64,000 bases of DNA from an uncultured Verrucomicrobiota bacterium (GTDB lineage Bacteria > Auribacterota > JABMQX01): contig CAZXGF010000010.1 in assembly GCA_964640185.1 (NCBI GenBank), positions 64,162 through 128,161 on the forward strand. Reading direction: 5' to 3'. How positions within the stretch are numbered: position 1 is the stretch's first letter; the number at the start of each line of letters is the position of its first letter. The translations under genes and the position numbers were made by a program. The notes beneath the pieces were generated by a model. The model saw only the letters and a list, made by a program, of their open reading frames with translations. It searched no databases and was not told the DNA's origin. Positions 7,562 through 61,773 of this stretch are shown in pieces.

Positions 7562-7915
7562 TCAGTTCACTTCGGAACATCCCGGCAAACCGTTTTTGTA
7601 AAGCCGCCCGCACGTCTCGAACATGGGCAACTGGGTCAACAACAGAGGTATGCCCTTGTTCTCTGCCAACCGCACAGTCTCCTCACCGGGTCTTTTTCCT
7701 CGAACAAAGCAGATAGCTTTGATATCAACCATCTCAGCCGTGCGAATAACCTGGGGATTGGTTAGTCCCGTTATGAGGAGCGCCCCTTGCTTGACGAAGG
7801 CGAGCACGTCGCTCATCAGGTCCGCCCCGCAAGCCATGCCGACCTCTGTATCCAAACCATTGCCGCCGGAGATGACCTCCGCGTCCAGAATTCGCTCCAC
7901 TTCGTCGAGTTTCAT
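7562..7915 (-). CDS. DRTGG domain protein (second copy)
   Basis: The ORF track gives 7562..8089. I trimmed the start to the internal Met (MKLDEVERIL) because the upstream part overlaps the end of the NuoF-like gene. DRTGG-like core: GADLMSDVLAFVKQGALLITGLTNPQVIRTAEMVDI...GIPLLLTQLPMFETCGRL. Confidence 0.6.
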   Translation of the reverse strand: MKLDEVERILDAEVISGGNGLDTEVGMACGADLMSDVLAFVKQGALLITGLTNPQVIRTAEMVDIKAICFVRGKRPGEETVRLAENKGIPLLLTQLPMFETCGRLYKNGLPGCSEVN

Positions 7916-7925
7916 GAAAGACTCC

Positions 7926-9719
7926 TCACCTTCTGGTGACGGCGCCGAACTTGCAGACCTCGTAGCACAATCCGCACTTGATACATTTTGCCGGGTCAAT
8001 AGTCTGCGGCTCCTTCTTTTCGCCGCTGATGGCCTCCGAGGGGCATTTCTTGACGCAGAGCATGCATCCGGTGCACTTCTCGGGGTCAATTAGGTACTCG
8101 ATCAAGCCTTTGCAGACCCCCGCAGGGCACCTCTTTTCCTTTATGTGTGCCTCATACTCGCTTCTGAAGTATTTCAGCGTGCTCAGTACCGGATTGGGAA
8201 GAGTCTGACCCAGTCCGCACAGCGACGCATCCTTAATGGCATTGCCCAATTCCTCAAGGAGCTCGAGGTCTCCCTCTCTGCCTTCCCCCTCGCAGATGCG
8301 GGTCAGGATCTCCAGGAGAGCCTCCGAGCCCTCGCGGCAAGCTGTGCATTTCCCGCACGACTCGGCATTCGTGAACCGTATGAAATAGCGAGCAACGTCC
8401 ACCACACATGTTTCTTCGTCCATTACGATCATTCCCCCAGAGCCCATAATAGAGCCTGCTTCCGTCAGGCGCTCGTAATCCACAGGAAGGTCTATTAGCT
8501 CTGCCGGAATGCACCCGCCCGAGGGGCCGCCGGTCTGCACCGCTTTGAACTTTTTCCCGTTCGGGATACCGCCCCCGATATCGAAGACGATCTCCCTTAA
8601 GGGGATCCCCATCGGCACCTCAACCAGCCCCGTATTGTTAATCTTACCCACGAGAGAAAAAACCTTCGTCCCCTTACTTTTCTCCGTACCTATGCTCGAA
8701 AACCAGTCGGCTCCTCGCAAAATGATCGTCGGTACAGTTGCCCAGGTCTCCACATTGTTGATGTTCGTGGGCTTCCCCCATAACCCACATTCGACAGGGT
8801 AGGGAGGTCTTTGCCTCGGCTCCGGCGGTCGGCCCTCGATGGACGCCAGCAGCGCGGTCTCCTCCCCGCACACGAAGGCTCCTGCCCCCACGTGAACCTC
8901 GACGTCAAAACTAAAATCGGTGTCGAATATGTTTTTGCCCAGAAGTCCGTAATCTCTCGCCTGCTCGATGGCGATTTTGATCCTTTCAAGGGCCAGGGGA
9001 TATTCACTTCTGATGTAGATAAACCCTTCCTCGGCGCCGATGGCCCTGGCGCCAATCAGCATCCCCTCCAGGACCGACTGCGGGTCTGCCTCCGCTATGC
9101 TCCTGTCCATGAACGCCCCCGGGTCCCCCTCATCGCCGTTGCATACAACATACTTCGGTTGGCCCTGAGCCTTCCGGCATAGGTCCCACTTGAGCCCGGT
9201 GGGGAACCCTGCCCCTCCTCTGCCCCGCAGCCCGGAAGCTTTGATCGTCTCGACAATCTCCTCCGCGGTCATCTCACTCAGCGCTTTTGCCAGAGCTTTG
9301 TACCCGTCCCGGGCGATATACTCGTCTATCTTTTCGGGATCAATTAGACCCCTGTTTCTCAGGGCCACGAGTGTCTGGCGCGCGAAAAAGCCGATATCCA
9401 TCATCCTGGGAATCGGCTTGTCCTCTGGAGGCGGAGAGTACATCAAGCGCTCAACGGGACGCCCTTTCAAGAAATGCTCTTCTACGAGGTGCGGAATATC
9501 CTCCACGGTGAGCTGTTGGTAGAAGATTCCTTCCGGCATGACTGTCATGACAGGGCCCACCGCACAAAAGCCGTTGCACCCGGTCATGACCACTGCAATT
9601 TCGTCTTCAAGACCTTGTTTCGCCAGTTCTTTATCGAGCGCTTCCTTGACCTGGAACGACCTGTTCGAAACACAGGCCGTCCCCGCGCAAAGCATCAAGT
9701 GCGTTCTATATCTCTTCAA
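7926..9719 (-). CDS. NuoF/HndC/HydB-like NAD(P)H-binding FMN flavoprotein with an N-terminal thioredoxin-like 2Fe-2S domain and a C-terminal 2x[4Fe-4S] ferredoxin domain
   Basis: NAD(P)H site GLRGRGGAGFPTGLKW, FMN site YVVCNGDEGDPGAFMDR, 4Fe-4S site ESCGKCTACREG, and C-terminal CxxCxxCxxxCP x2 motifs. Confidence 0.85.
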   Translation of the reverse strand: MKRYRTHLMLCAGTACVSNRSFQVKEALDKELAKQGLEDEIAVVMTGCNGFCAVGPVMTVMPEGIFYQQLTVEDIPHLVEEHFLKGRPVERLMYSPPPEDKPIPRMMDIGFFARQTLVALRNRGLIDPEKIDEYIARDGYKALAKALSEMTAEEIVETIKASGLRGRGGAGFPTGLKWDLCRKAQGQPKYVVCNGDEGDPGAFMDRSIAEADPQSVLEGMLIGARAIGAEEGFIYIRSEYPLALERIKIAIEQARDYGLLGKNIFDTDFSFDVEVHVGAGAFVCGEETALLASIEGRPPEPRQRPPYPVECGLWGKPTNINNVETWATVPTIILRGADWFSSIGTEKSKGTKVFSLVGKINNTGLVEVPMGIPLREIVFDIGGGIPNGKKFKAVQTGGPSGGCIPAELIDLPVDYERLTEAGSIMGSGGMIVMDEETCVVDVARYFIRFTNAESCGKCTACREGSEALLEILTRICEGEGREGDLELLEELGNAIKDASLCGLGQTLPNPVLSTLKYFRSEYEAHIKEKRCPAGVCKGLIEYLIDPEKCTGCMLCVKKCPSEAISGEKKEPQTIDPAKCIKCGLCYEVCKFGAVTRR

Positions 9720-9746
9720 TCCCTTTTTCCGATTCCCTAATGGTTT

Positions 9747-10130
9747 CTAAGACTGCCGTTCACTTCCTCTGGCCAATGCGTACTCCGTCACGGCTTTTCC
9801 GCCCAAGACGTGCTCATCGAGAATCCTGCGGGTCTTGTCCGGAGTCAGGTCCACGTACTTGACAGGCGCCTCTCCCTTCAATTCGACTGTCGCCATGGGT
9901 TCGCGACTGCATAGCCCTGCACATCCGCTACTGGTCAAGATAACGTCCTTGATATCCTTATTCTCGAACTCGTCCAGAAGCGTGTTCATGATTTCTCTTG
10001 CTCCTGCGGCGATACCACAGGTCCCCATGTGGACGGTAATTTTGGCTCTCCCCGCCCCCTGCCGGAGTAGAGTAGCCCTCCTTACCTTTTCGGCAATCCT
10101 GTCGAGGTCTTCGATCTTTATCTTGGACAT
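9747..10130 (-). CDS. NuoE/HndA-like thioredoxin-fold [2Fe-2S] ferredoxin
   Basis: 127 aa with the Cys pattern HMGTCGIAAG ... SSGCAGLC typical of thioredoxin-like 2Fe-2S ferredoxins. Confidence 0.75.
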   Translation of the reverse strand: MSKIKIEDLDRIAEKVRRATLLRQGAGRAKITVHMGTCGIAAGAREIMNTLLDEFENKDIKDVILTSSGCAGLCSREPMATVELKGEAPVKYVDLTPDKTRRILDEHVLGGKAVTEYALARGSERQS

Positions 10131-10141
10131 CCCTTGTTCCC

Positions 10142-11101
10142 CTACCTGTACTTTTCAACGATCTTCAGCACTTCTGCTTGGGTCAGCTTGCCATAGAGGT
10201 CCTCTCCGATGGTCATAACCGGCGCCAGGCCGCAACACCCGATGCAGTTGACAGTTTCCAGGGTAAAAGCCATGTCCTCCGATGTCTCACCGGTTGCTAT
10301 GCCAAGTGCTCGCTCGAGCGTCTCAACAATGAGGGGAGCGCCTTTAACATGGCAGGTCGTCCCCATGCAAACGGTGACGATGTGTTTCCCTCTCGGCTTG
10401 AGGCTGAAGGAGGCGTAAAAAGTAGCTATCCGGTAAATCAGGCTTAGAGGGATATCAAGCTGGCGAGCTAAATAGCGCAAGACATCTTCGGGAAGATAGT
10501 TGTAGCTTGAGTTGATGCTCTGCAAGATGGACACTATTGGTCCCTTTTCGCCACGGTGTTCATGCAGAATCTCGTCCACCCTCACCCGGTCCTCCGCTGC
10601 GAGCTCAACCTTCTTTTTCTCCTCTGGCTTCAGCACATATATTTGGTTCCTTACAGGGCAGATGCCCATACACTCCCCGCAGCCGGTGCACTTGTCCTCC
10701 TCAACGAAGCGGGGACGCTTTTTGAGGGTTGCCTGAAAGCGTCCGGGACTTCCCTCAAGCCTCTCCACATGCGCCAGGGTAATCACCTCGATATCCTTAT
10801 GCCTCCCGATTTCCACGAGACGGGGGGCCATAGTGCACATTGCGCAGTCATTCGTCGGGAAGGTTTTGTCAAGCTGGGACATCACCCCCCCAATGCTGGG
10901 TTTGTTATCCACCAGATAAACCTTGAATCCTGATTCGGCGAGGTCGAGGGCGGCTTGCATACCACCGATCCCCCCGCCCACGACAAGAACGGCGCCAACT
11001 TTGCCGTTTCTTCGTTGACGGTTATCGCTCATTAAATGTTGGTCCTTTGCAAAACCTCTACCCGGCAATCGCCGGCGCCTATCTTCGCTCAGCCCTTTCA
11101 A
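10142..11101 (-). CDS. fusion protein: an HdrA-like N-terminal FAD-binding fragment joined to a NuoE-like [2Fe-2S] domain
   Basis: N-terminal half: VLVVGGGIGGMQAALDLAESG...DCAMCTMAPRL...CTGCGECMGICP (HdrA-type dinucleotide fold plus a 4Fe-4S site). C-terminal half: CMGTTCHVKG...VNCIGCCGLAPV (NuoE signature). The start overlaps the upstream gene stop in an ATGA arrangement. Confidence 0.7.
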   Translation of the reverse strand: MKGLSEDRRRRLPGRGFAKDQHLMSDNRQRRNGKVGAVLVVGGGIGGMQAALDLAESGFKVYLVDNKPSIGGVMSQLDKTFPTNDCAMCTMAPRLVEIGRHKDIEVITLAHVERLEGSPGRFQATLKKRPRFVEEDKCTGCGECMGICPVRNQIYVLKPEEKKKVELAAEDRVRVDEILHEHRGEKGPIVSILQSINSSYNYLPEDVLRYLARQLDIPLSLIYRIATFYASFSLKPRGKHIVTVCMGTTCHVKGAPLIVETLERALGIATGETSEDMAFTLETVNCIGCCGLAPVMTIGEDLYGKLTQAEVLKIVEKYR

Positions 11102-44522: not shown

Positions 44523-45248
44523 TCACCCGCGAATCCGTCTCGCCCGGTCGAACCTGCGGGCGACTTCCTCCCAGTGAATGACGTTCATAATCGCGCTAAC
44601 GTAATCCGCGCGGCGATTCTGGTACTTGAGGTAATAGGCGTGCTCCCATACGTCAATCACAAGTAGCGGCACGGCGCCACACACAACCTGATTCTCATGC
44701 TTTTCGATCTGAAGCACTAACAGCCGCCGCCCCAAAGGCTCGTACGCCAATACGCCCCATCCGCTGCCCGCAACCTTGTTGGCCGCCGCGCTCAGCTGGG
44801 ACACTAGCGCCTCAACCTTCCCGAATTGCGCTTTTAGGGCGGCCAGCAAGGCGCCCCTCGGTTTAGTCGGTTTGGGGTGGAGGTTCGCGAAATAGAGCGT
44901 GTGCAACACGTGTCCGGAGCCATGAAAGGCCAACGCCCGCAACAGAGCCTGCACGGCGCTGAAATCCCCCTTCTTTTGTGCATCTTCCAGTTTTGCCAGC
45001 GTGGCGTTGAGGCCTCGCACGTAGCCCGCGTGGTGTTTATCGTGGTGGATGGTCAGCGTGCGGGCGTCAAGATACGGTTCGAGGGCATCAACCGCGTATG
45101 GCAAATCGGGCAGGGTATATGGCTCAACGCTGCCTGCACGCCGGTTGGCGGTGGCTGCTGAGTCCTTCACTGGCAAACCGACGGCAGCGGCCCCGGCCGC
45201 TGACGCCCCCACCAATCTTATCCATTCTCGCCGAGAAAGTATATCCAC
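44523..45248 (-). CDS. Fe/Mn superoxide dismutase with a twin-arginine (Tat) signal peptide
   Basis: SRREWIRLVGASAAGAAA Tat-like leader. SOD metal ligands (HHDKHHAGY..., D..WEHAYY). Confidence 0.85.
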   Translation of the reverse strand: MDILSRREWIRLVGASAAGAAAVGLPVKDSAATANRRAGSVEPYTLPDLPYAVDALEPYLDARTLTIHHDKHHAGYVRGLNATLAKLEDAQKKGDFSAVQALLRALAFHGSGHVLHTLYFANLHPKPTKPRGALLAALKAQFGKVEALVSQLSAAANKVAGSGWGVLAYEPLGRRLLVLQIEKHENQVVCGAVPLLVIDVWEHAYYLKYQNRRADYVSAIMNVIHWEEVARRFDRARRIRG

Positions 45249-47401: not shown

Positions 47402-48301
47402 TCATTCCTTCTTCTGTGCTTCTATCCCCTCGAGCTTGAATCTCAGCCAGTCGGCCATCTCTTGGATGTTCTTGCTGAGATACCAGCGGCCATTGGCGAA
47501 GGCACCGTAGTCAGCCCCCATCATTGCGGAGGCGAAGCGTGTCGAGTTGGCGAAAAAGAGCCACTCCTCTACCCACTTCTTCTCAATCGCTTCGTTGAAA
47601 ATGCTGTCGTTCTCAGCGAGCCCTCGCGCCGCGCCTTTTTCCCAGGCTGTCATCAATATCCTGGTCGCCGTCCGCGTCATTTCGTTGGTCGTTCTGATCG
47701 TGTTTTGGAAGCGCGCGAACTGCCCGTCCACCCAACCCTGCCCGTGGCAGGCGAGGCAGATATTCTGCATTGCTTTACGCCTCTTCTCCTGCTCTTTCCC
47801 GTCAATGAGGAACTTGGCGGCAGGCTCACCTGTCAGCTCAGTCGGCAGCGGCAGACCCGCCCGGTTCTTGATGATGCTGGTATCTGCCGATTTCGGATGG
47901 GGGTGGGCATAGATAAGCCCGAAAATCCTCCACGGGAGCCGATCATTCATCCGATGCGTCCTCTCGGCAACCGCCTCACCATCATCGTTGACAATCAAGC
48001 TGACATGGCATGTCGCGCACGTTGGCGCCGTGAAATCTCTTCCAACAACCCACGGGACCGCATCGAAGTTCCACCTATCGCCCACCGAGGAAAAAATGTT
48101 CCCGTGCTTGCTGACCATATAGACCTTGTACGCCGGAACGTCCGGCCCCTCGTGACATGCGGAACAGGTGTAAGGCTTTCTCGCCATCTCGACCGAGAAC
48201 CGGTGCCTCGTATGGCAGGCGGTGCATGAGCCCACGCTTCCATCGGGATTCAACCGACCAACTCCCTGATTCGGCCACCCGGAAAGAACCGGGAACTCCA
48301 T
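47402..48301 (-). CDS. multiheme cytochrome c, C-terminal tetraheme half (probably the downstream part of a frameshift-split octaheme cytochrome)
   Basis: Four CxxCH motifs (CTACH, CSACH, CATCH, CLACH). There is no signal peptide. The N-terminus overlaps, in another frame, the end of the upstream cytochrome ORF. Confidence 0.55.
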   Translation of the reverse strand: MEFPVLSGWPNQGVGRLNPDGSVGSCTACHTRHRFSVEMARKPYTCSACHEGPDVPAYKVYMVSKHGNIFSSVGDRWNFDAVPWVVGRDFTAPTCATCHVSLIVNDDGEAVAERTHRMNDRLPWRIFGLIYAHPHPKSADTSIIKNRAGLPLPTELTGEPAAKFLIDGKEQEKRRKAMQNICLACHGQGWVDGQFARFQNTIRTTNEMTRTATRILMTAWEKGAARGLAENDSIFNEAIEKKWVEEWLFFANSTRFASAMMGADYGAFANGRWYLSKNIQEMADWLRFKLEGIEAQKKE

Positions 48302-48915
48302 CTCCCCCAGAACCGTCTCCCTTGTCTCAAAACCTCTTCCTCGACCGCCGTGCCATGGCAGTAGAAGCAGGAATCAGCTTCGGTCTCGGCATCCGGGGGC
48401 GAAAGGCTCGTCGTCATGTTCTCGAAGGACTGAACGCCGGTCGCCGAATTCACCAGGGAGTGATAGACCGGATTGTTCTTGAGATTCCCGTAGGCGTGGG
48501 ACATCAGATTTTGGCCGTACTCCTTCACCTCGACAGCATGGCACGTCGCGCAATCATTCGGCGTAACGACCACATGCACTTTGTAATCGGCGTGCTCAAA
48601 CGTGTCTTTGTGCTTTTCCGGATTCAGGTTGTGGCACTCCGCACAGCCGACCGCGACGTTTGCGAGATTTTCCGGCACTTTCGCGACCGAGATTCTTCTT
48701 TCAAGGTCATCTTTCTTCAGGGCCTCGGCCGGAGTTACGCGGGCGTGAAGGCCTTTTCTCCAATCCGCTACGATCCCCGGGTTCAACGTCGCGTGACAGG
48801 CAAGGCACGTTTCGCTGTCTTCGCTTAACGCGGCGTTCTCCGCGGGAAACGACGTTGCCGCCACACACAGCAATGCAAGAACGAGAGCTGCTGAAAAGCT
48901 AAAGACGCTGCTCAT
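48250..48915 (-). CDS. multiheme cytochrome c, N-terminal tetraheme half with a Sec signal peptide
   Basis: Signal peptide MSSVFSFSAALVLALLCVAATSFPA. Four CxxCH motifs (CLACH, CAECH, CATCH, CFYCH). Confidence 0.6.
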   Translation of the reverse strand: MSSVFSFSAALVLALLCVAATSFPAENAALSEDSETCLACHATLNPGIVADWRKGLHARVTPAEALKKDDLERRISVAKVPENLANVAVGCAECHNLNPEKHKDTFEHADYKVHVVVTPNDCATCHAVEVKEYGQNLMSHAYGNLKNNPVYHSLVNSATGVQSFENMTTSLSPPDAETEADSCFYCHGTAVEEEVLRQGRRFWGRWSSRFFPGGRIRELVG

Positions 48916-49559: not shown

Positions 49560-50093
49560 CTACTCCGCTTCCGTCCGCGCTGCTATAAGCTCGTCGAGGA
49601 CGTCGGTGTACGCCTTCTTCAGGCTACGGCCCACTATTGTCTTCGCAAGCTTGCCGGCTTTGAAGATTTTCACGTCCGGAATCGCCATGACACCATGTTT
49701 CTGCGCCAGGCTGGTGAACTTAGTCACGTCCACGGATACAACCGTTGCCCGCCCTGCATACTCCGTTGCAATCTCGTGAATGGTCGGCTTCAGCCTTCTG
49801 CATGGCGGGCACCCATCCGAGTAGAAGTCCACAAGCACCACATCGTTGCTCCTCAGCACCTCCTTTAGCTCCGCCGCTGCTTTCAGTCCGATTAGATGTT
49901 TCGAGGGATTCGCAACTTTCTGTTGCCCCCCGAACGTGGATGCGAGCAGCACCCCTATCAAAGCCCCAAAGATGGCCCCGCCTATGGGGCTGCCGGTCAG
50001 GGGACACGTGCCGCTTGCGCACTTTCCGAAATGCCCGATCACGCCCCCAATTACCCCGCCAATAACCGCACCGACTATGAGCTTATGTACCAT
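49560..50093 (-). CDS. thioredoxin-domain protein with a non-canonical CPPC active site and an N-terminal Gly-rich hydrophobic segment
   Basis: VVLVDFYSDGCPPCRRLKP...AIPDVKIF is a thioredoxin fold with a cis-Pro region. The N-terminal about 55 aa is GxxxG-rich (VGAVIGGVIGGVIGHFGKCASGTCPLTGSPIGGAIFGALIGVLLA). Confidence 0.65.
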   Translation of the reverse strand: MVHKLIVGAVIGGVIGGVIGHFGKCASGTCPLTGSPIGGAIFGALIGVLLASTFGGQQKVANPSKHLIGLKAAAELKEVLRSNDVVLVDFYSDGCPPCRRLKPTIHEIATEYAGRATVVSVDVTKFTSLAQKHGVMAIPDVKIFKAGKLAKTIVGRSLKKAYTDVLDELIAARTEAE

Positions 50094-50996: not shown

Positions 50997-51311
50997 TTAT
51001 GATTTGCCCTTATTGAGTTCCTCGGCGATTTCGTCAACCTCGGCGGCGCCATCCGCCAGGTGTCCCGCCTCATCCGGCAGCAGTATATTGAGCACCCGCT
51101 GGAATTCTCCGGCATGCACGCGCTCCTCGTTGGCTATATCTTGAAGCACCGCCTTTGCCAGTTCGTTGTCTGTGGCATCGGCGAGCGCCTCGTAGAGGTG
51201 GACCGCTTCCTCCTCGGCTGCCAGAGCCATGCGTATTCCTCGGCTCAACTCCCGCTCGCTCAACTTACCTTCCGGAATCACTCCGCTAAACGGATTGATG
51301 AACTCCGCCAT
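50997..51311 (-). CDS. small ferritin-like / rubrerythrin-like diiron-domain protein (104 aa)
   Basis: EEEAVHLYE and EERVHAGEF ExxH-type motifs. EncFtn/erythrin-like size. Confidence 0.5.
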   Translation of the reverse strand: MAEFINPFSGVIPEGKLSERELSRGIRMALAAEEEAVHLYEALADATDNELAKAVLQDIANEERVHAGEFQRVLNILLPDEAGHLADGAAEVDEIAEELNKGKS

Positions 51312-58164: not shown

Positions 58165-59517
58165 TTACAGATGGTATGGGTGGCGCTGTGGCCTACTCAT
58201 CAAGCGCCGGGCCTCTGCGTCGCCGACGATCTCCTTCTTAGCTTGGTCCCAACGGAGCTTGCGGCCAAGGATGAAGGAAAGGTTGCCGAGAACGCACAGA
58301 TTGGCTACACCGACTGCCGCATCAATGTTCATGACGGTCTTGGCGCCGGTCTTGATGCCCTTAAACCAGTCCTCCATGTGCCCCGGGCTTTTGTAAACAT
58401 CCTTTGCGCCGGCGGGCGGCGCCCATTCGCGGACTTTTCTCTCAGCCCACGTGCCGCCATCGCCGCCCCAATGGGTGAACGTGCCCTTGGTGCCGTGATA
58501 GACCGCGCCGTAGCCGGGACGGACGATTCTGGCCTCGCCCTTCTTCCTCTCCTCGGCAGGAGGAGCGTTGCCGGTATGCTGGTCCCAGATGAGAACCCAG
58601 TCGGGGTTCTTGAAGGTGTAAGTGACGTGCATGGTGACGGCGGCGTCCCACAAGCCCTTGGTCGGCGAAGTGCCCGTCGCCTCAATGGTGACGGGGCCGG
58701 TTCCGTCGGCGCCCATCCACCACATGGCGCAGCTCATCACGTGGGCGCCGCGGTCGCGAATCTGCCCGCCGCCGGACTCCAATACCCAGCGAAATGTGCC
58801 GGGGAGATACTTTCTATTGTATGGTCGCCAGCGCAGCGGTCCCAACCACATGTCCCAGTCCAGCTCGGGTGGCGGATCACTGTCCGGGACCGGGTTATTG
58901 TCCGCAGGACTGTTGTAGTGAAAACACCATACCTTACTGATGTGGCCGATGTTGCCGTTGACCAGGTACCGGTGCAAGAGATAAGCCTCCGGCTGCGACC
59001 GTCCCTGCGAGCCGACCTGGATGGCCACCTTGTTCTTCCTTCCGGCTGCGGCCATCGCCTGTCCCTCCTCGATAGTGCAGCACGCCGGCTTTTCCACGTA
59101 GATGTGCTTGCCGCATTCGGCGGCGTGGACCGTCTGAACGGCGTGCCAGTGGTCGGGCGTAGCAATCACCACCGCGTCAATGTCCTTGCGCTGGAGAACG
59201 TAGCGGTAGTCGCGGTAGGGCGTGACGGTTTTCTTTGACCATTTCGCCTGGTACGTCGCCGCGCGGGCGAGCCTTTTCTCGTCCACATCGCAGACTGCTG
59301 CACAGTCAGCCTGGTCGCCAATTTTGGACCTCATCATTCCGTTCATGAGGCCCGTGCCTCTCCCGCCCGAACCGATCAGGGCAACTGCCACTCGGTCGTT
59401 TGCCCCCGGTCTGCCCGGGGCAGCCAGCACCCCTGACGGAATGATGTACGGAGCGCTTATCGCCGCGCCCACACTCGCCAAAAACTGGCGTCGGTTCATT
59501 TTGCTTTGCTTGCTCAT
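58165..59517 (-). CDS. Gfo/Idh/MocA-family NAD(P)-dependent oxidoreductase with a Tat signal
   Basis: MNRRQFLASVGAAISAPYI Tat leader. Rossmann fold VALIGSGGRG, EKP motif (IYVEKPAC). Confidence 0.85.
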   Translation of the reverse strand: MSKQSKMNRRQFLASVGAAISAPYIIPSGVLAAPGRPGANDRVAVALIGSGGRGTGLMNGMMRSKIGDQADCAAVCDVDEKRLARAATYQAKWSKKTVTPYRDYRYVLQRKDIDAVVIATPDHWHAVQTVHAAECGKHIYVEKPACCTIEEGQAMAAAGRKNKVAIQVGSQGRSQPEAYLLHRYLVNGNIGHISKVWCFHYNSPADNNPVPDSDPPPELDWDMWLGPLRWRPYNRKYLPGTFRWVLESGGGQIRDRGAHVMSCAMWWMGADGTGPVTIEATGTSPTKGLWDAAVTMHVTYTFKNPDWVLIWDQHTGNAPPAEERKKGEARIVRPGYGAVYHGTKGTFTHWGGDGGTWAERKVREWAPPAGAKDVYKSPGHMEDWFKGIKTGAKTVMNIDAAVGVANLCVLGNLSFILGRKLRWDQAKKEIVGDAEARRLMSRPQRHPYHL

Positions 59518-60423: not shown

Positions 60424-61773
60424 TCACAGGTGGTATGGATGGCGCTGTGGCCGACTCATTAGGCGCCGGGCCTCTGCGTCACCGACGATCTCCCCTTTAG
60501 CCTGATCCCAACGGAGCTTGCGGCCGAGGATAAAAGAGAGGTTGCCCAGGACGCACAGGTTGGCCACTCCGACCCCGGCCTCGATGTTCATGATGGTCTT
60601 GGCGCCGGTCTTGATACCCTTGAACCAGTCTTCCATGTGGCCGGGGCTCTTATAGACATCTTTTGCTCCGGCAGGCGGCGCCCATTCGCGGGCTTTTCTC
60701 TCGGCCCAGACCTCGCCGCATCCCCAGTGAGTGAACGTCCCCGTGGTACCGTGATAGACCGCCCCGTAGCCGGGACGGAGGATCCTGGCCTCGCCTTTCT
60801 TTCTCTCCTCCGGCGGGGGGGCGTTGCCGGTGTGCTGATCCCAGATCAGAACCCAATCGGGGCTCTTGAACGTGTAGGTCACGTGCATGGTGACGGCGGC
60901 ATCCCACAGGCCCTTGGTCGGCGAAGTACCCCTGGCCTCTACGGTAACCGGCCCGGCGCCGTCGGCGCCCATCCACCACATGGTGAGGCTCATGTCGTGG
61001 GCGCCGCGGTCGCGAATCTGCCCGCCGCCGGACTCCATTACCCAACGAAACGTGCCGGGGAGATACCTCCTATTGTATGGACGCCAGCGCAACGGGCCCA
61101 GCCACATGTCCCAATCAAGCTCAGGCGGGGGATCGCTGTCGGGGACCGGGTTGTTGTCCACAGGGCTGTTATAGTGAAAACACCATACCTTGGAGATGTG
61201 GCCGATGTTCCCGTTGACCAGGTACCGGTGCGCCAGATAACCTTCCGGGTGCGATCGTCCTTGGGAGCCGACCTGGACGGCCACTTTGTTCTGTTCCGCC
61301 GCCCTGACCATCGCCTTGCCTTCCCCGATGGTGCAGCAAGCCGGCTTTTCCACGTAGATGTGCTTGCCGCATTCGGCGGCGTGGACCATCTGGACCGCAT
61401 GCCAGTGATCGGGAGTGGCAATCACCACCGCGTCAATGTCCTTGCGCTCCAGAATATAGCGGTAGTCGCGATAGGGCGTGACGCGTCTTTTCGCCCACCT
61501 CGCCTCCCACTTCGCTGCATCGGCGAGTCTTTTCTCGTCAACATCGCAGACGGCTGCGCACTGAGCCTGGTCGGCAATTTTTGACGTCCTTATCCAGTTC
61601 ATCAGGCTTCTGCCCCGCCCGCCCGCGCCGATCAGGGCAACTGCCACTCGGTCGTTTGCCCCCGGTTCGCCCGAGGCAGCCAACACGCCTGACGGAATGA
61701 TATACGGAGCGCTTATCGCCGCGCCCATAGTCGCCAGAAACTGGCGTCGGTTCATTTTGTTTTGCTTGCTCAT
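60424..61773 (-). CDS. Gfo/Idh/MocA-family oxidoreductase with a Tat signal (tandem paralog, about 88% identical by eye to 58165-59517)
   Basis: Near-identical N-terminus MSKQNKMNRRQFLATMGAAISAPYIIPSGVLAA and conserved core. Confidence 0.85.
   Translation of the reverse strand: MSKQNKMNRRQFLATMGAAISAPYIIPSGVLAASGEPGANDRVAVALIGAGGRGRSLMNWIRTSKIADQAQCAAVCDVDEKRLADAAKWEARWAKRRVTPYRDYRYILERKDIDAVVIATPDHWHAVQMVHAAECGKHIYVEKPACCTIGEGKAMVRAAEQNKVAVQVGSQGRSHPEGYLAHRYLVNGNIGHISKVWCFHYNSPVDNNPVPDSDPPPELDWDMWLGPLRWRPYNRRYLPGTFRWVMESGGGQIRDRGAHDMSLTMWWMGADGAGPVTVEARGTSPTKGLWDAAVTMHVTYTFKSPDWVLIWDQHTGNAPPPEERKKGEARILRPGYGAVYHGTTGTFTHWGCGEVWAERKAREWAPPAGAKDVYKSPGHMEDWFKGIKTGAKTIMNIEAGVGVANLCVLGNLSFILGRKLRWDQAKGEIVGDAEARRLMSRPQRHPYHL

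Follow-up and report, generated by a model that had tools for sequence, protein, structure and literature searches.

A one-base frameshift splits an HAO-family octaheme cytochrome c gene in a PerR-like stress island of an uncultured bacterium

Introduction

In octaheme cytochromes c of the HAO family, the fourth heme motif binds the catalytic five-coordinate heme (PMC8042395, PMC9250108). In the oxidative enzymes a tyrosine of one subunit crosslinks the catalytic heme of the next, and the absence of this residue marks reductive enzymes (PMC8042395), the reductive branch being defined by an HAO fold without the crosslinking tyrosine (PMC8042395, PMC9250108, PMC8940962). Characterised reductive members reduce nitrite and hydroxylamine, or nitrite to nitric oxide (NO) (PMC8042395, PMC9250108). 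The structure of IhOCC from Ignicoccus hospitalis is available (PDB 4QO5; Parey et al. 2016, as cited in PMC9250108 and PMC8840924), and the protein is reported to be devoid of a P460 heme (PMC9250108). Epsilon-Hao is described as reducing both nitrite and hydroxylamine (Haase et al. 2017, as related in PMC8042395 and PMC8940962), while HAOr Kustc0458 of Kuenenia (PDB 6H5L) reduces nitrite to NO and works with a diheme partner (PMC8042395). Here we describe a broken gene of this family, located at positions 47402-48915 on the minus strand of a 64,000-nt stretch of DNA from an uncultured Verrucomicrobiota bacterium (GCA_964640185.1, contig CAZXGF010000010.1), which is referred to as a whole as the window.

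Judged by its sequence, the locus is one gene for a periplasmic HAO-family octaheme cytochrome c, and a disrupted rather than a working member of the family unless the frame is restored. The disruption is very probably a recent, lineage-specific and inactivating one-base deletion, and thus a case of ordinary gene inactivation rather than of a new mechanism. A first-pass annotation, made from the letters of the DNA, had already read the locus as a single octaheme gene and had offered recent pseudogenisation, programmed frameshifting and a homopolymer sequencing error as possible causes of the split; of these, the first is favoured by the confinement of the lesion to a lone population, by the missing slippery signal and by the intact orthologs.

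One HAO-family gene in two reading frames

The locus comprises two open reading frames (ORFs) on the minus strand, which carry four CxxCH heme motifs each:

48915..48250 (-): ORF-A, N-terminal fragment of the octaheme cytochrome, 221 residues, four CxxCH motifs (CLACH, CAECH, CATCH, CFYCH)
48301..47402 (-): ORF-B, read from the ATG at 48301, 299 residues, four CxxCH motifs (CTACH, CSACH, CATCH, CLACH)
47402..48325 (-): C-terminal part, read in the -1 frame; the native sequence is regained at about 48325 (TRETVLGEMEFPV...) and includes heme motifs 5-8 before the stop TGA at 47404-47402
48793..48807 (-): heme motif 1, CLACH, invariant alignment column
48631..48645 (-): heme motif 2, CAECH, invariant alignment column
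48538..48552 (-): heme motif 3, CATCH, invariant alignment column
48355..48369 (-): heme motif 4, CFYCH, invariant alignment column, last motif before the break
48212..48226 (-): heme motif 5, CTACH, invariant alignment column
48152..48166 (-): heme motif 6, CSACH, invariant alignment column
48005..48019 (-): heme motif 7, CATCH, invariant alignment column
47744..47758 (-): heme motif 8, CLACH, invariant alignment column

The start of ORF-A is preceded by the ribosome-binding site GGGAGA, and its N-terminus, MSSVFSFSAALVLALLCVAATSFPAENA, is hydrophobic and, judged by eye, signal-like, with comparable leaders in homologs. In this signal-like peptide (window 48830-48915 (-)) the n-region contains no Lys or Arg, unlike those of the homologs; the sole single-nucleotide polymorphism (SNP) seen in the population, S2R in contig L068 (671-680), adds a positive residue to this region. 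About 196 native residues of ORF-A are followed by an out-of-frame tail of 25 residues, RQGRRFWGRWSSRFFPGGRIRELVG, that ends at the TGA at 48252-48250. The first residues of ORF-B, on the other hand, correspond to an internal conserved segment and not to a signal peptide. Gene callers let the C-terminal part begin either at the ATG at 48301 (299 residues) or at a TTG at 48253 (283 residues), while its frame is open upstream as far as 48373. ORF-A and ORF-B lie in different frames and share 52 nt; the first-pass annotation had put this overlap at about 50 nt and had also given the motif counts and noted the missing signal peptide of the downstream ORF. The passage from frame A to frame B requires a -1 shift, that is, one base missing from the DNA. 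An intact ORF for the whole enzyme is therefore not present, the one-base deletion at about 48327 giving two frames. Conceptual repair by the -1 shift yields a joined protein of 504 residues rather than the roughly 520 estimated at first. When the repaired protein was used as a tblastn query, the window copy appeared as residues 1-197 in one frame and residues 196-504 in the other.

The joined protein behaves as a single member of its family. As a single sequence it matches 4QO5, the structure of IhOCC, with E = 3e-129, and a profile of 29 sequences matches the same chain with E = 6e-153 over residues 8-514, the alignment running through the junction. Further matches of the profile are 6H5L (3e-40), 1FGJ (7e-39), 4N4J (2e-31) and 6HIF (4e-22), and the Pfam family PF13447 is matched by the joined protein with 77 bits against a cutoff of 21.9. 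Once the frame has been conceptually repaired, the eight CxxCH motifs (four plus four) occupy invariant columns of the 29-sequence alignment and align with the motifs of 4QO5. A search of 5.8 billion proteins retrieved 3,738 homologs at E <= 1e-20, and every one of the best 120 of these is a single protein of 489-614 residues. The closest full-length protein among the matches listed (P0001) shares 86% identity and is encoded by an intact, syntenic ortholog (locus L006, 7758-9317).

Since the joined product aligns across the junction and the best 120 of the 3,738 homologs are single proteins, the locus represents one gene and not two; orthologs consisting of two separate tetraheme genes, an arrangement that would have spoken for two genes, were not encountered among these 120. 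With respect to the families proposed at first, namely HAO, Otr and MccA, the assignment to HAO holds, specifically to its reductive IhOCC/epsilon-Hao branch, while the other two have to be dropped.

The site of the lesion

Two features define the junction between the frames:

48325..48331 (-): lesion, single-base deletion in a Lys codon; 'ttg ag aca' in the window against 'ttg aag tca' in L006, coinciding with the crossover of the tblastn high-scoring segment pairs
48304..48308 (-): run of five G (G5; C5 on the plus strand), kept in the intact L006 ortholog, where it encodes Leu-Gly-Glu in frame

The DNA alignment with the L006 ortholog contains one gap ('ttg a-g aca agg' in the window against 'ttg aag tca agg'), which places the missing base at about 48327, where one A (or an equivalent base) of a Lys codon is lost. 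The site is an AA dinucleotide and not a homopolymer, and tblastn independently confines the switch of frame to 48331-48325. Intact homologs read CFYCHGTA[IV]EV[EK][AG][LT]K[STV]RET.LGEMEFPVLSGWPNQ across the junction. Because frame A of the window holds GTAVEEEVL and frame B holds TRETVLGEMEFPVLSGWPNQ, the switch must lie upstream of the G5 run; the conserved segment RETVLGEMEFPV is already read in frame B before the run is reached.

The first-pass annotation had located the break at this homopolymer, described as a cccccc/ggggg run at about 48303-48308 within the overlap. A run does lie near the junction, but it comprises five bases (48304-48308) rather than six and sits just upstream of the ORF-B ATG, outside the ATG-defined overlap. 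The sequence CTGGGGGA, which includes the run, is identical in the intact L006 ortholog, and the G5 run was rejected as the lesion on these grounds. A T4 run at 48329-48332 was rejected, too: its extension from T4 to T5 restores the length but gives V-F-E-T against the L-K-[ST] of the homologs. Phase variation was rejected as well, a repeat tract being absent at the lesion.

Origin and fate of the frameshift

The window stems from a metagenome-type assembly, for which single-base indels are a known class of error, and the missing base might accordingly be a sequencing or assembly error that conceals a gene intact in the organism. The assembled record makes this barely credible. The exact 221-residue product of ORF-A is recorded on 14 contigs, and the sequence was recovered in eight contigs other than that of the window: the 1,514-nt gene is 100% identical in five of them (L001-L005), two carry the same gene (L066, L067), and the eighth (L068), a contig from another run, represents a strain variant with one SNP (S2R) in 2,400 nt and the same frameshift. 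These contigs derive from seven samples processed by two pipelines, namely JGI (3300031551, 3300032062, 3300031650, 3300031620) and Logan (SRR9707467, SRR9707989, SRR9700625), and the sequence collection additionally lists an NCBI source for the fragment, with a longest contig of 128 kb. Moreover, no intact allele is catalogued among about 15 billion proteins, the best full-length protein being 86% identical, and the 90% clusters of the fragments contain 221-, 283- and 299-residue entries only. A pattern scan of the metagenome_contigs collection for the junction with optional extra bases retrieved neither an intact nor the frameshifted allele, as these contigs are absent from that collection; on the retrieved loci the pattern does match. 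Given the non-homopolymer site and the recovery by different pipelines from different samples, sequencing error is not a plausible explanation of the missing base. A homopolymer error in particular is incompatible with a lesion that lies off any homopolymer and recurs in independent assemblies.

With the deletion established in the DNA, its age and consequences can be assessed by comparison with L006. The ratio of nonsynonymous to synonymous substitution rates (dN/dS) amounts to 0.159 for the N-terminal and 0.126 for the C-terminal half, compared with 0.109-0.186 for five intact neighbouring genes, at a dS of about 0.3-1.0, and neither half contains further stops or indels. Low dN/dS values and the lack of secondary lesions imply either that the break arose late compared with the divergence from the 86% relative or that the gene is still constrained. 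The same shift was found in no relative, the 86% ortholog and the other listed relatives being in frame. Damage was seen in only two further copies across 58 genome loci. The one in the complete Helicobacter felistomachi genome (L063, 8001-9013) is divided between two frames, though not at the position found here, while the other (L050, 2991-3665), in a metagenome-assembled genome (MAG) of the Desulfobacteraceae, is a truncated internal remnant (query residues 53-277).

According to the favoured reading, the gene would have been inactivated recently in this lineage when a Lys codon between the motifs for hemes 4 and 5 lost a single base at about 48327. Translation from the native start would yield the 221-residue product, composed of the signal-like peptide, hemes 1-4 and the nonsense tail of 25 residues, whereas for the part with hemes 5-8 only internal starts would be available, so that it would lack a signal peptide and thus access to the periplasm, and the full-length enzyme would presumably not be made. 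Attachment of c-type hemes takes place in the periplasm, and the C-terminal piece, devoid of a signal peptide, would hence not be matured. In solved members of the family all eight hemes are packed in one chain that forms a single fold (PMC9250108), for which reason neither piece is expected to work alone.

Two other fates would preserve a function for the locus. In the first of them, the full-length octaheme protein is still produced by -1 ribosomal frameshifting, and expression is reduced or regulated but not abolished. The shift needed is indeed -1, and since no stop interrupts frame B between 48373 and the end of ORF-A, a slip anywhere within about 120 nt gives full length; both halves are otherwise intact with low dN/dS. 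Two sites are candidates: on G GGG G (48308-48304) tRNA-Gly could slip in the P site, as GGG can re-pair perfectly one base back in the G5 run, and tRNA-Leu could do so on U UUG (48331-48328), with a product of native length. However, no canonical X_XXY_YYZ heptamer occurs in frame A between 48376 and 48250, where both frames are open, partial matches aside, and no stable structure follows: the minimum free energies of the 70 nt after the lesion and after the G5 run do not surpass those of shuffled sequences (z = +0.56 and +0.48, respectively). A slip at the G5 run would furthermore replace the conserved KTRETVL by RQGRRFW, the run predates the lesion, as it is also found in the intact ortholog and thus did not evolve together with the shift, and the shift itself is confined to one population. 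Programmed frameshifting, among the causes initially offered, is exceedingly improbable in the light of these findings. A junction peptide EEEVLETRETVLGEM would point to slippage at UUG and FWGEMEFPVLSGWPNQGVGR to slippage at the G5 run, while plain ORF-A would be recognised by its tail FFPGGRIRELVG.

In the second fate, the exported 221-residue tetraheme piece, alone or together with the C-terminal piece, constitutes a working 'pruned' cytochrome. ORF-A retains its native start, ribosome-binding site, signal-like peptide and four heme motifs, and there is a precedent in the proposal that cytochrome c554 and NrfA arose by truncation of octaheme ancestors (PMC9250108). In addition, coupled translation of the second piece is conceivable, since the TTG at 48253 overlaps the stop of ORF-A and has AGGGAG 8 nt upstream. 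This is opposed by the position of the break, which does not coincide with the module borders of known truncated relatives and parts the catalytic heme-4 motif from the adjoining conserved segment, by the lack of a signal peptide and thus of periplasmic heme loading in the second piece, and by the 25 nonsense residues at the end of ORF-A; such a split is, besides, encoded by no relative listed. A functional fragment thus appears very unlikely. Even jointly, an exported tetraheme fragment that now works as a small cytochrome and a full-length enzyme still made by -1 slippage within the window of about 120 nt are improbable outcomes; if one of them were true, the locus would represent a stress operon with a recoded or newly truncated multiheme cytochrome.

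Several points weigh against recent inactivation as set out above. The frameshifted contigs probably originate from one study and one near-clonal population (one SNP in 2,400 nt), so they show a base that is truly missing in the DNA and not an old or widespread state. As the evidence comes from assembled contigs, a minority intact allele or low-level restoration of the frame is possible. Low dN/dS and absent secondary lesions fit a gene that is still under selection equally well, and, as to mechanism, a ribosome could slip by -1 in the P site on G GGG G (48308-48304). Finally, the function ascribed to the intact enzyme is a prediction from homology and neighbourhood.

Assignment to the reductive branch

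For the assignment of the repaired protein to the oxidative or the reductive type, the position of the crosslinking tyrosine is decisive. The profile search against the PDB reached HAO of N. europaea only to residue ~415; oxidative HAO homologs were therefore retrieved, and Tyr467 of the N. europaea enzyme was placed by anchored counting, with three anchors agreeing with the 1FGJ numbering. This residue lies within the conserved TYT motif, (W/F/Y)-T-Y-T-x-G-W. In a MAFFT alignment the Tyr467 column is occupied by Ala472 in the window protein, by Thr in IhOCC and by His in the Helicobacter proteins, while hhalign places Phe473 of the window protein in this column. In both alignments alike, the aromatic residue two positions ahead of the crosslinking tyrosine is matched by Tyr470, which is nearly invariant, and the crosslink position is variable across the subclade of the window protein. 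The check for the HAO-specific tyrosine, which had been recommended at the outset, thus found Ala or Phe in its place, and on this basis its alignments put the repaired protein in the reductive branch with IhOCC and epsilon-Hao, which has no Tyr crosslink.

The function of the intact enzyme can be inferred from the biochemistry of the family and from the conserved neighbourhood. Electrons would be passed via seven bis-His hemes to heme 4, where a small N-oxide (nitrite, NO or hydroxylamine) or possibly peroxide would be reduced.

The stress island and its relatives

The gene lies within a co-directional series of genes for stress proteins, which extends from a Fur-family regulator to a superoxide dismutase:

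51959-51555 (-): Fur-family regulator at the head of the island, best on PerR models, with 106 and 103 bits against cutoffs of 180 and 200
51311-50997 (-): EncB-like ferritin-like protein
50705-50139 (-): rubrerythrin, above model cutoff
50093-49560 (-): thioredoxin with DUF6132 N-terminus
49490-48975 (-): thiol peroxidase Tpx, above model cutoff
48915-47402 (-): the frameshifted cytochrome, both ORFs
47342-46704 (-): peroxiredoxin, above model cutoff
46689-46315 (-): desulfoferrodoxin, above model cutoff
46318-45812 (-): ferritin
45800-45309 (-): rubrerythrin-like protein
45248-44523 (-): Fe/Mn superoxide dismutase

Intact homologs of the cytochrome share this setting, their neighbours including genes for Fur/PerR-like regulators, rubrerythrin, desulfoferrodoxin, peroxiredoxin, thioredoxin, flavodiiron protein and Hcp. 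The intact L006 ortholog resides in the same island, extended by a ferredoxin-like gene and Hcp, and two Verrucomicrobiota-labelled MAGs with 71-73% identity contain the same island together with an encapsulin shell gene. Among named relatives, MAGs with this label stand closest to the gene and the island. In a Syntrophobacterales genome the order is Fur, rubrerythrin, rubredoxin, flavodiiron protein and cytochrome, and in a Desulfobacterales genome desulfoferrodoxin, cytochrome and peroxiredoxin. For a descriptive count, the stress proteins of the window were used as tblastn queries against genome loci of at least 6 kb, and genes within 8 kb were considered. At least one stress gene was detected within this distance in 19 of 51 genome loci and at least two in 11; equally descriptively, stress genes accompany about 17 of 28 loci at 60% identity or more versus about 2 of 30 more distant homologs.

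By context, these findings support the view that the intact enzyme is part of a PerR-like operon against oxidative or nitrosative stress and has a role in stress defence. The 'PerR stress island' of the first-pass annotation is hence borne out with respect to its conserved neighbourhood, while the name PerR should be used with reserve, as the PerR models match best but score below their cutoffs; the peroxidase or nitrosative-stress role suggested there agrees with the stress context, its specific form being an inference. The related pentaheme NrfA of Wolinella, studied by Kern, Volz and Simon in 2011, reportedly takes part in defence against nitrite, NO, hydroxylamine and H2O2, which makes a stress-defence role plausible for the present subclade, too. 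A literature search found no paper linking HAO or octaheme cytochromes with rubrerythrin, PerR or desulfoferrodoxin.

Several members of the island deserve separate mention. The 104-residue protein encoded after the Fur-like regulator (50997-51311 (-)) belongs to the EncB family of encapsulin ferritin-like cargo (93.5 bits against a cutoff of 90). An encapsulin shell gene was not detected by tblastn in the 64-kb window, while in two relatives a Linocin_M18 shell gene lies directly 3' of the cargo gene (L069, 2333-3145; L070, 2134-2949), and the window protein is either an orphan cargo or one that has lost its shell. The thioredoxin (49560-50093 (-)) is fused to a glycine-rich, hydrophobic DUF6132 segment, a fusion that stands beside the cytochrome in L006, too. 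At the end of the island, the superoxide dismutase (44523-45248 (-)) features a twin-arginine-like N-terminal motif, SRREWIRLVGASAAGAAA, which suggests periplasmic export. The ferredoxin-like gene and Hcp/prismane, a member of the hydroxylamine/NO reductase family, are located upstream of the cytochrome in L006 (4610-6706), and no Hcp was found in the 64-kb window.

Other members of the island are damaged in relatives. In L006, where the cytochrome is intact, the downstream peroxiredoxin (9383-10169) is reduced to residues 1-22 and 193-211 with its interior replaced, and in L070 a C-terminal peroxiredoxin remnant of 59 residues (7574-7753) persists while desulfoferrodoxin is missing. The island thus decays differently in sister lineages, affecting the cytochrome here and the peroxiredoxin or the encapsulin shell elsewhere, and such lineage-specific losses point to redundancy among the stress defences.

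Outside the island, the window encodes proteins of 450 and 449 residues (58165-59517 (-) and 60424-61773 (-)), which fall into the same 90%-identity cluster and are therefore regarded as recent paralogs; the former matches the GFO_IDH_MocA oxidoreductase type of Pfam. No tRNA genes and no Rfam family matches were found in the whole window (1-64000).

Significance

The locus itself is of little significance alone, being a young pseudogene whose host is uncultured and whose enzyme family is well known, and for annotation it should be labelled as a frameshifted HAO-family gene and not as two tetraheme cytochromes. A more useful lead is the reductive HAO subclade that occurs repeatedly in PerR-like operons with rubrerythrin, desulfoferrodoxin, peroxiredoxin, flavodiiron protein or Hcp. 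In anoxic sediments and mats, where nitrogen-gene counts are dominated by 'hao' genes, this association suggests that many of them may serve stress defence instead of respiration or the nitrogen cycle.

Comparison with known systems

Among the characterised proteins, IhOCC resembles the window protein in its full-length homology, in all eight CxxCH motifs, in the lack of Tyr at the crosslink column and in the C-terminal helical region. It differs by an insertion of about 35 residues before heme 8, which the window protein does not possess, and by a Trp where the window protein has Tyr470, whereas the window copy is bacterial, frameshifted and embedded in a stress-gene operon. Epsilon-Hao and HAOr are likewise HAO-family octaheme proteins without the crosslinking Tyr, but they are far more distant in sequence than IhOCC: the Helicobacter loci share 28-30% identity with the window protein, and HAOr (6H5L) is matched with E = 3e-40. 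Around the Helicobacter loci and other distant homologs, the stress genes that surround the window gene are almost entirely lacking.

The oxidative enzymes, that is, HAO of N. europaea (1FGJ/4FAS) as well as HOX (4N4J) and HDH (6HIF) of Kuenenia, belong to the same family and share the arrangement of the heme core, the central region of hemes 5-7 being well conserved with the window protein (E = 7e-39 to 4e-22). On the contrary, their N- and C-terminal regions are divergent, and the Tyr that is crosslinked to heme 4 (P460) corresponds to Ala or Phe in the window protein. The carriers of window-type proteins are anaerobe-type MAGs, unlike the ammonia-oxidising hosts of HAO. With ordinary frameshift pseudogenes, finally, the window gene has in common the single-base deletion, the lack of a slippery signal, the intact orthologs and the decay of other island members in sister lineages, and it differs from them only in being young and free of secondary lesions.

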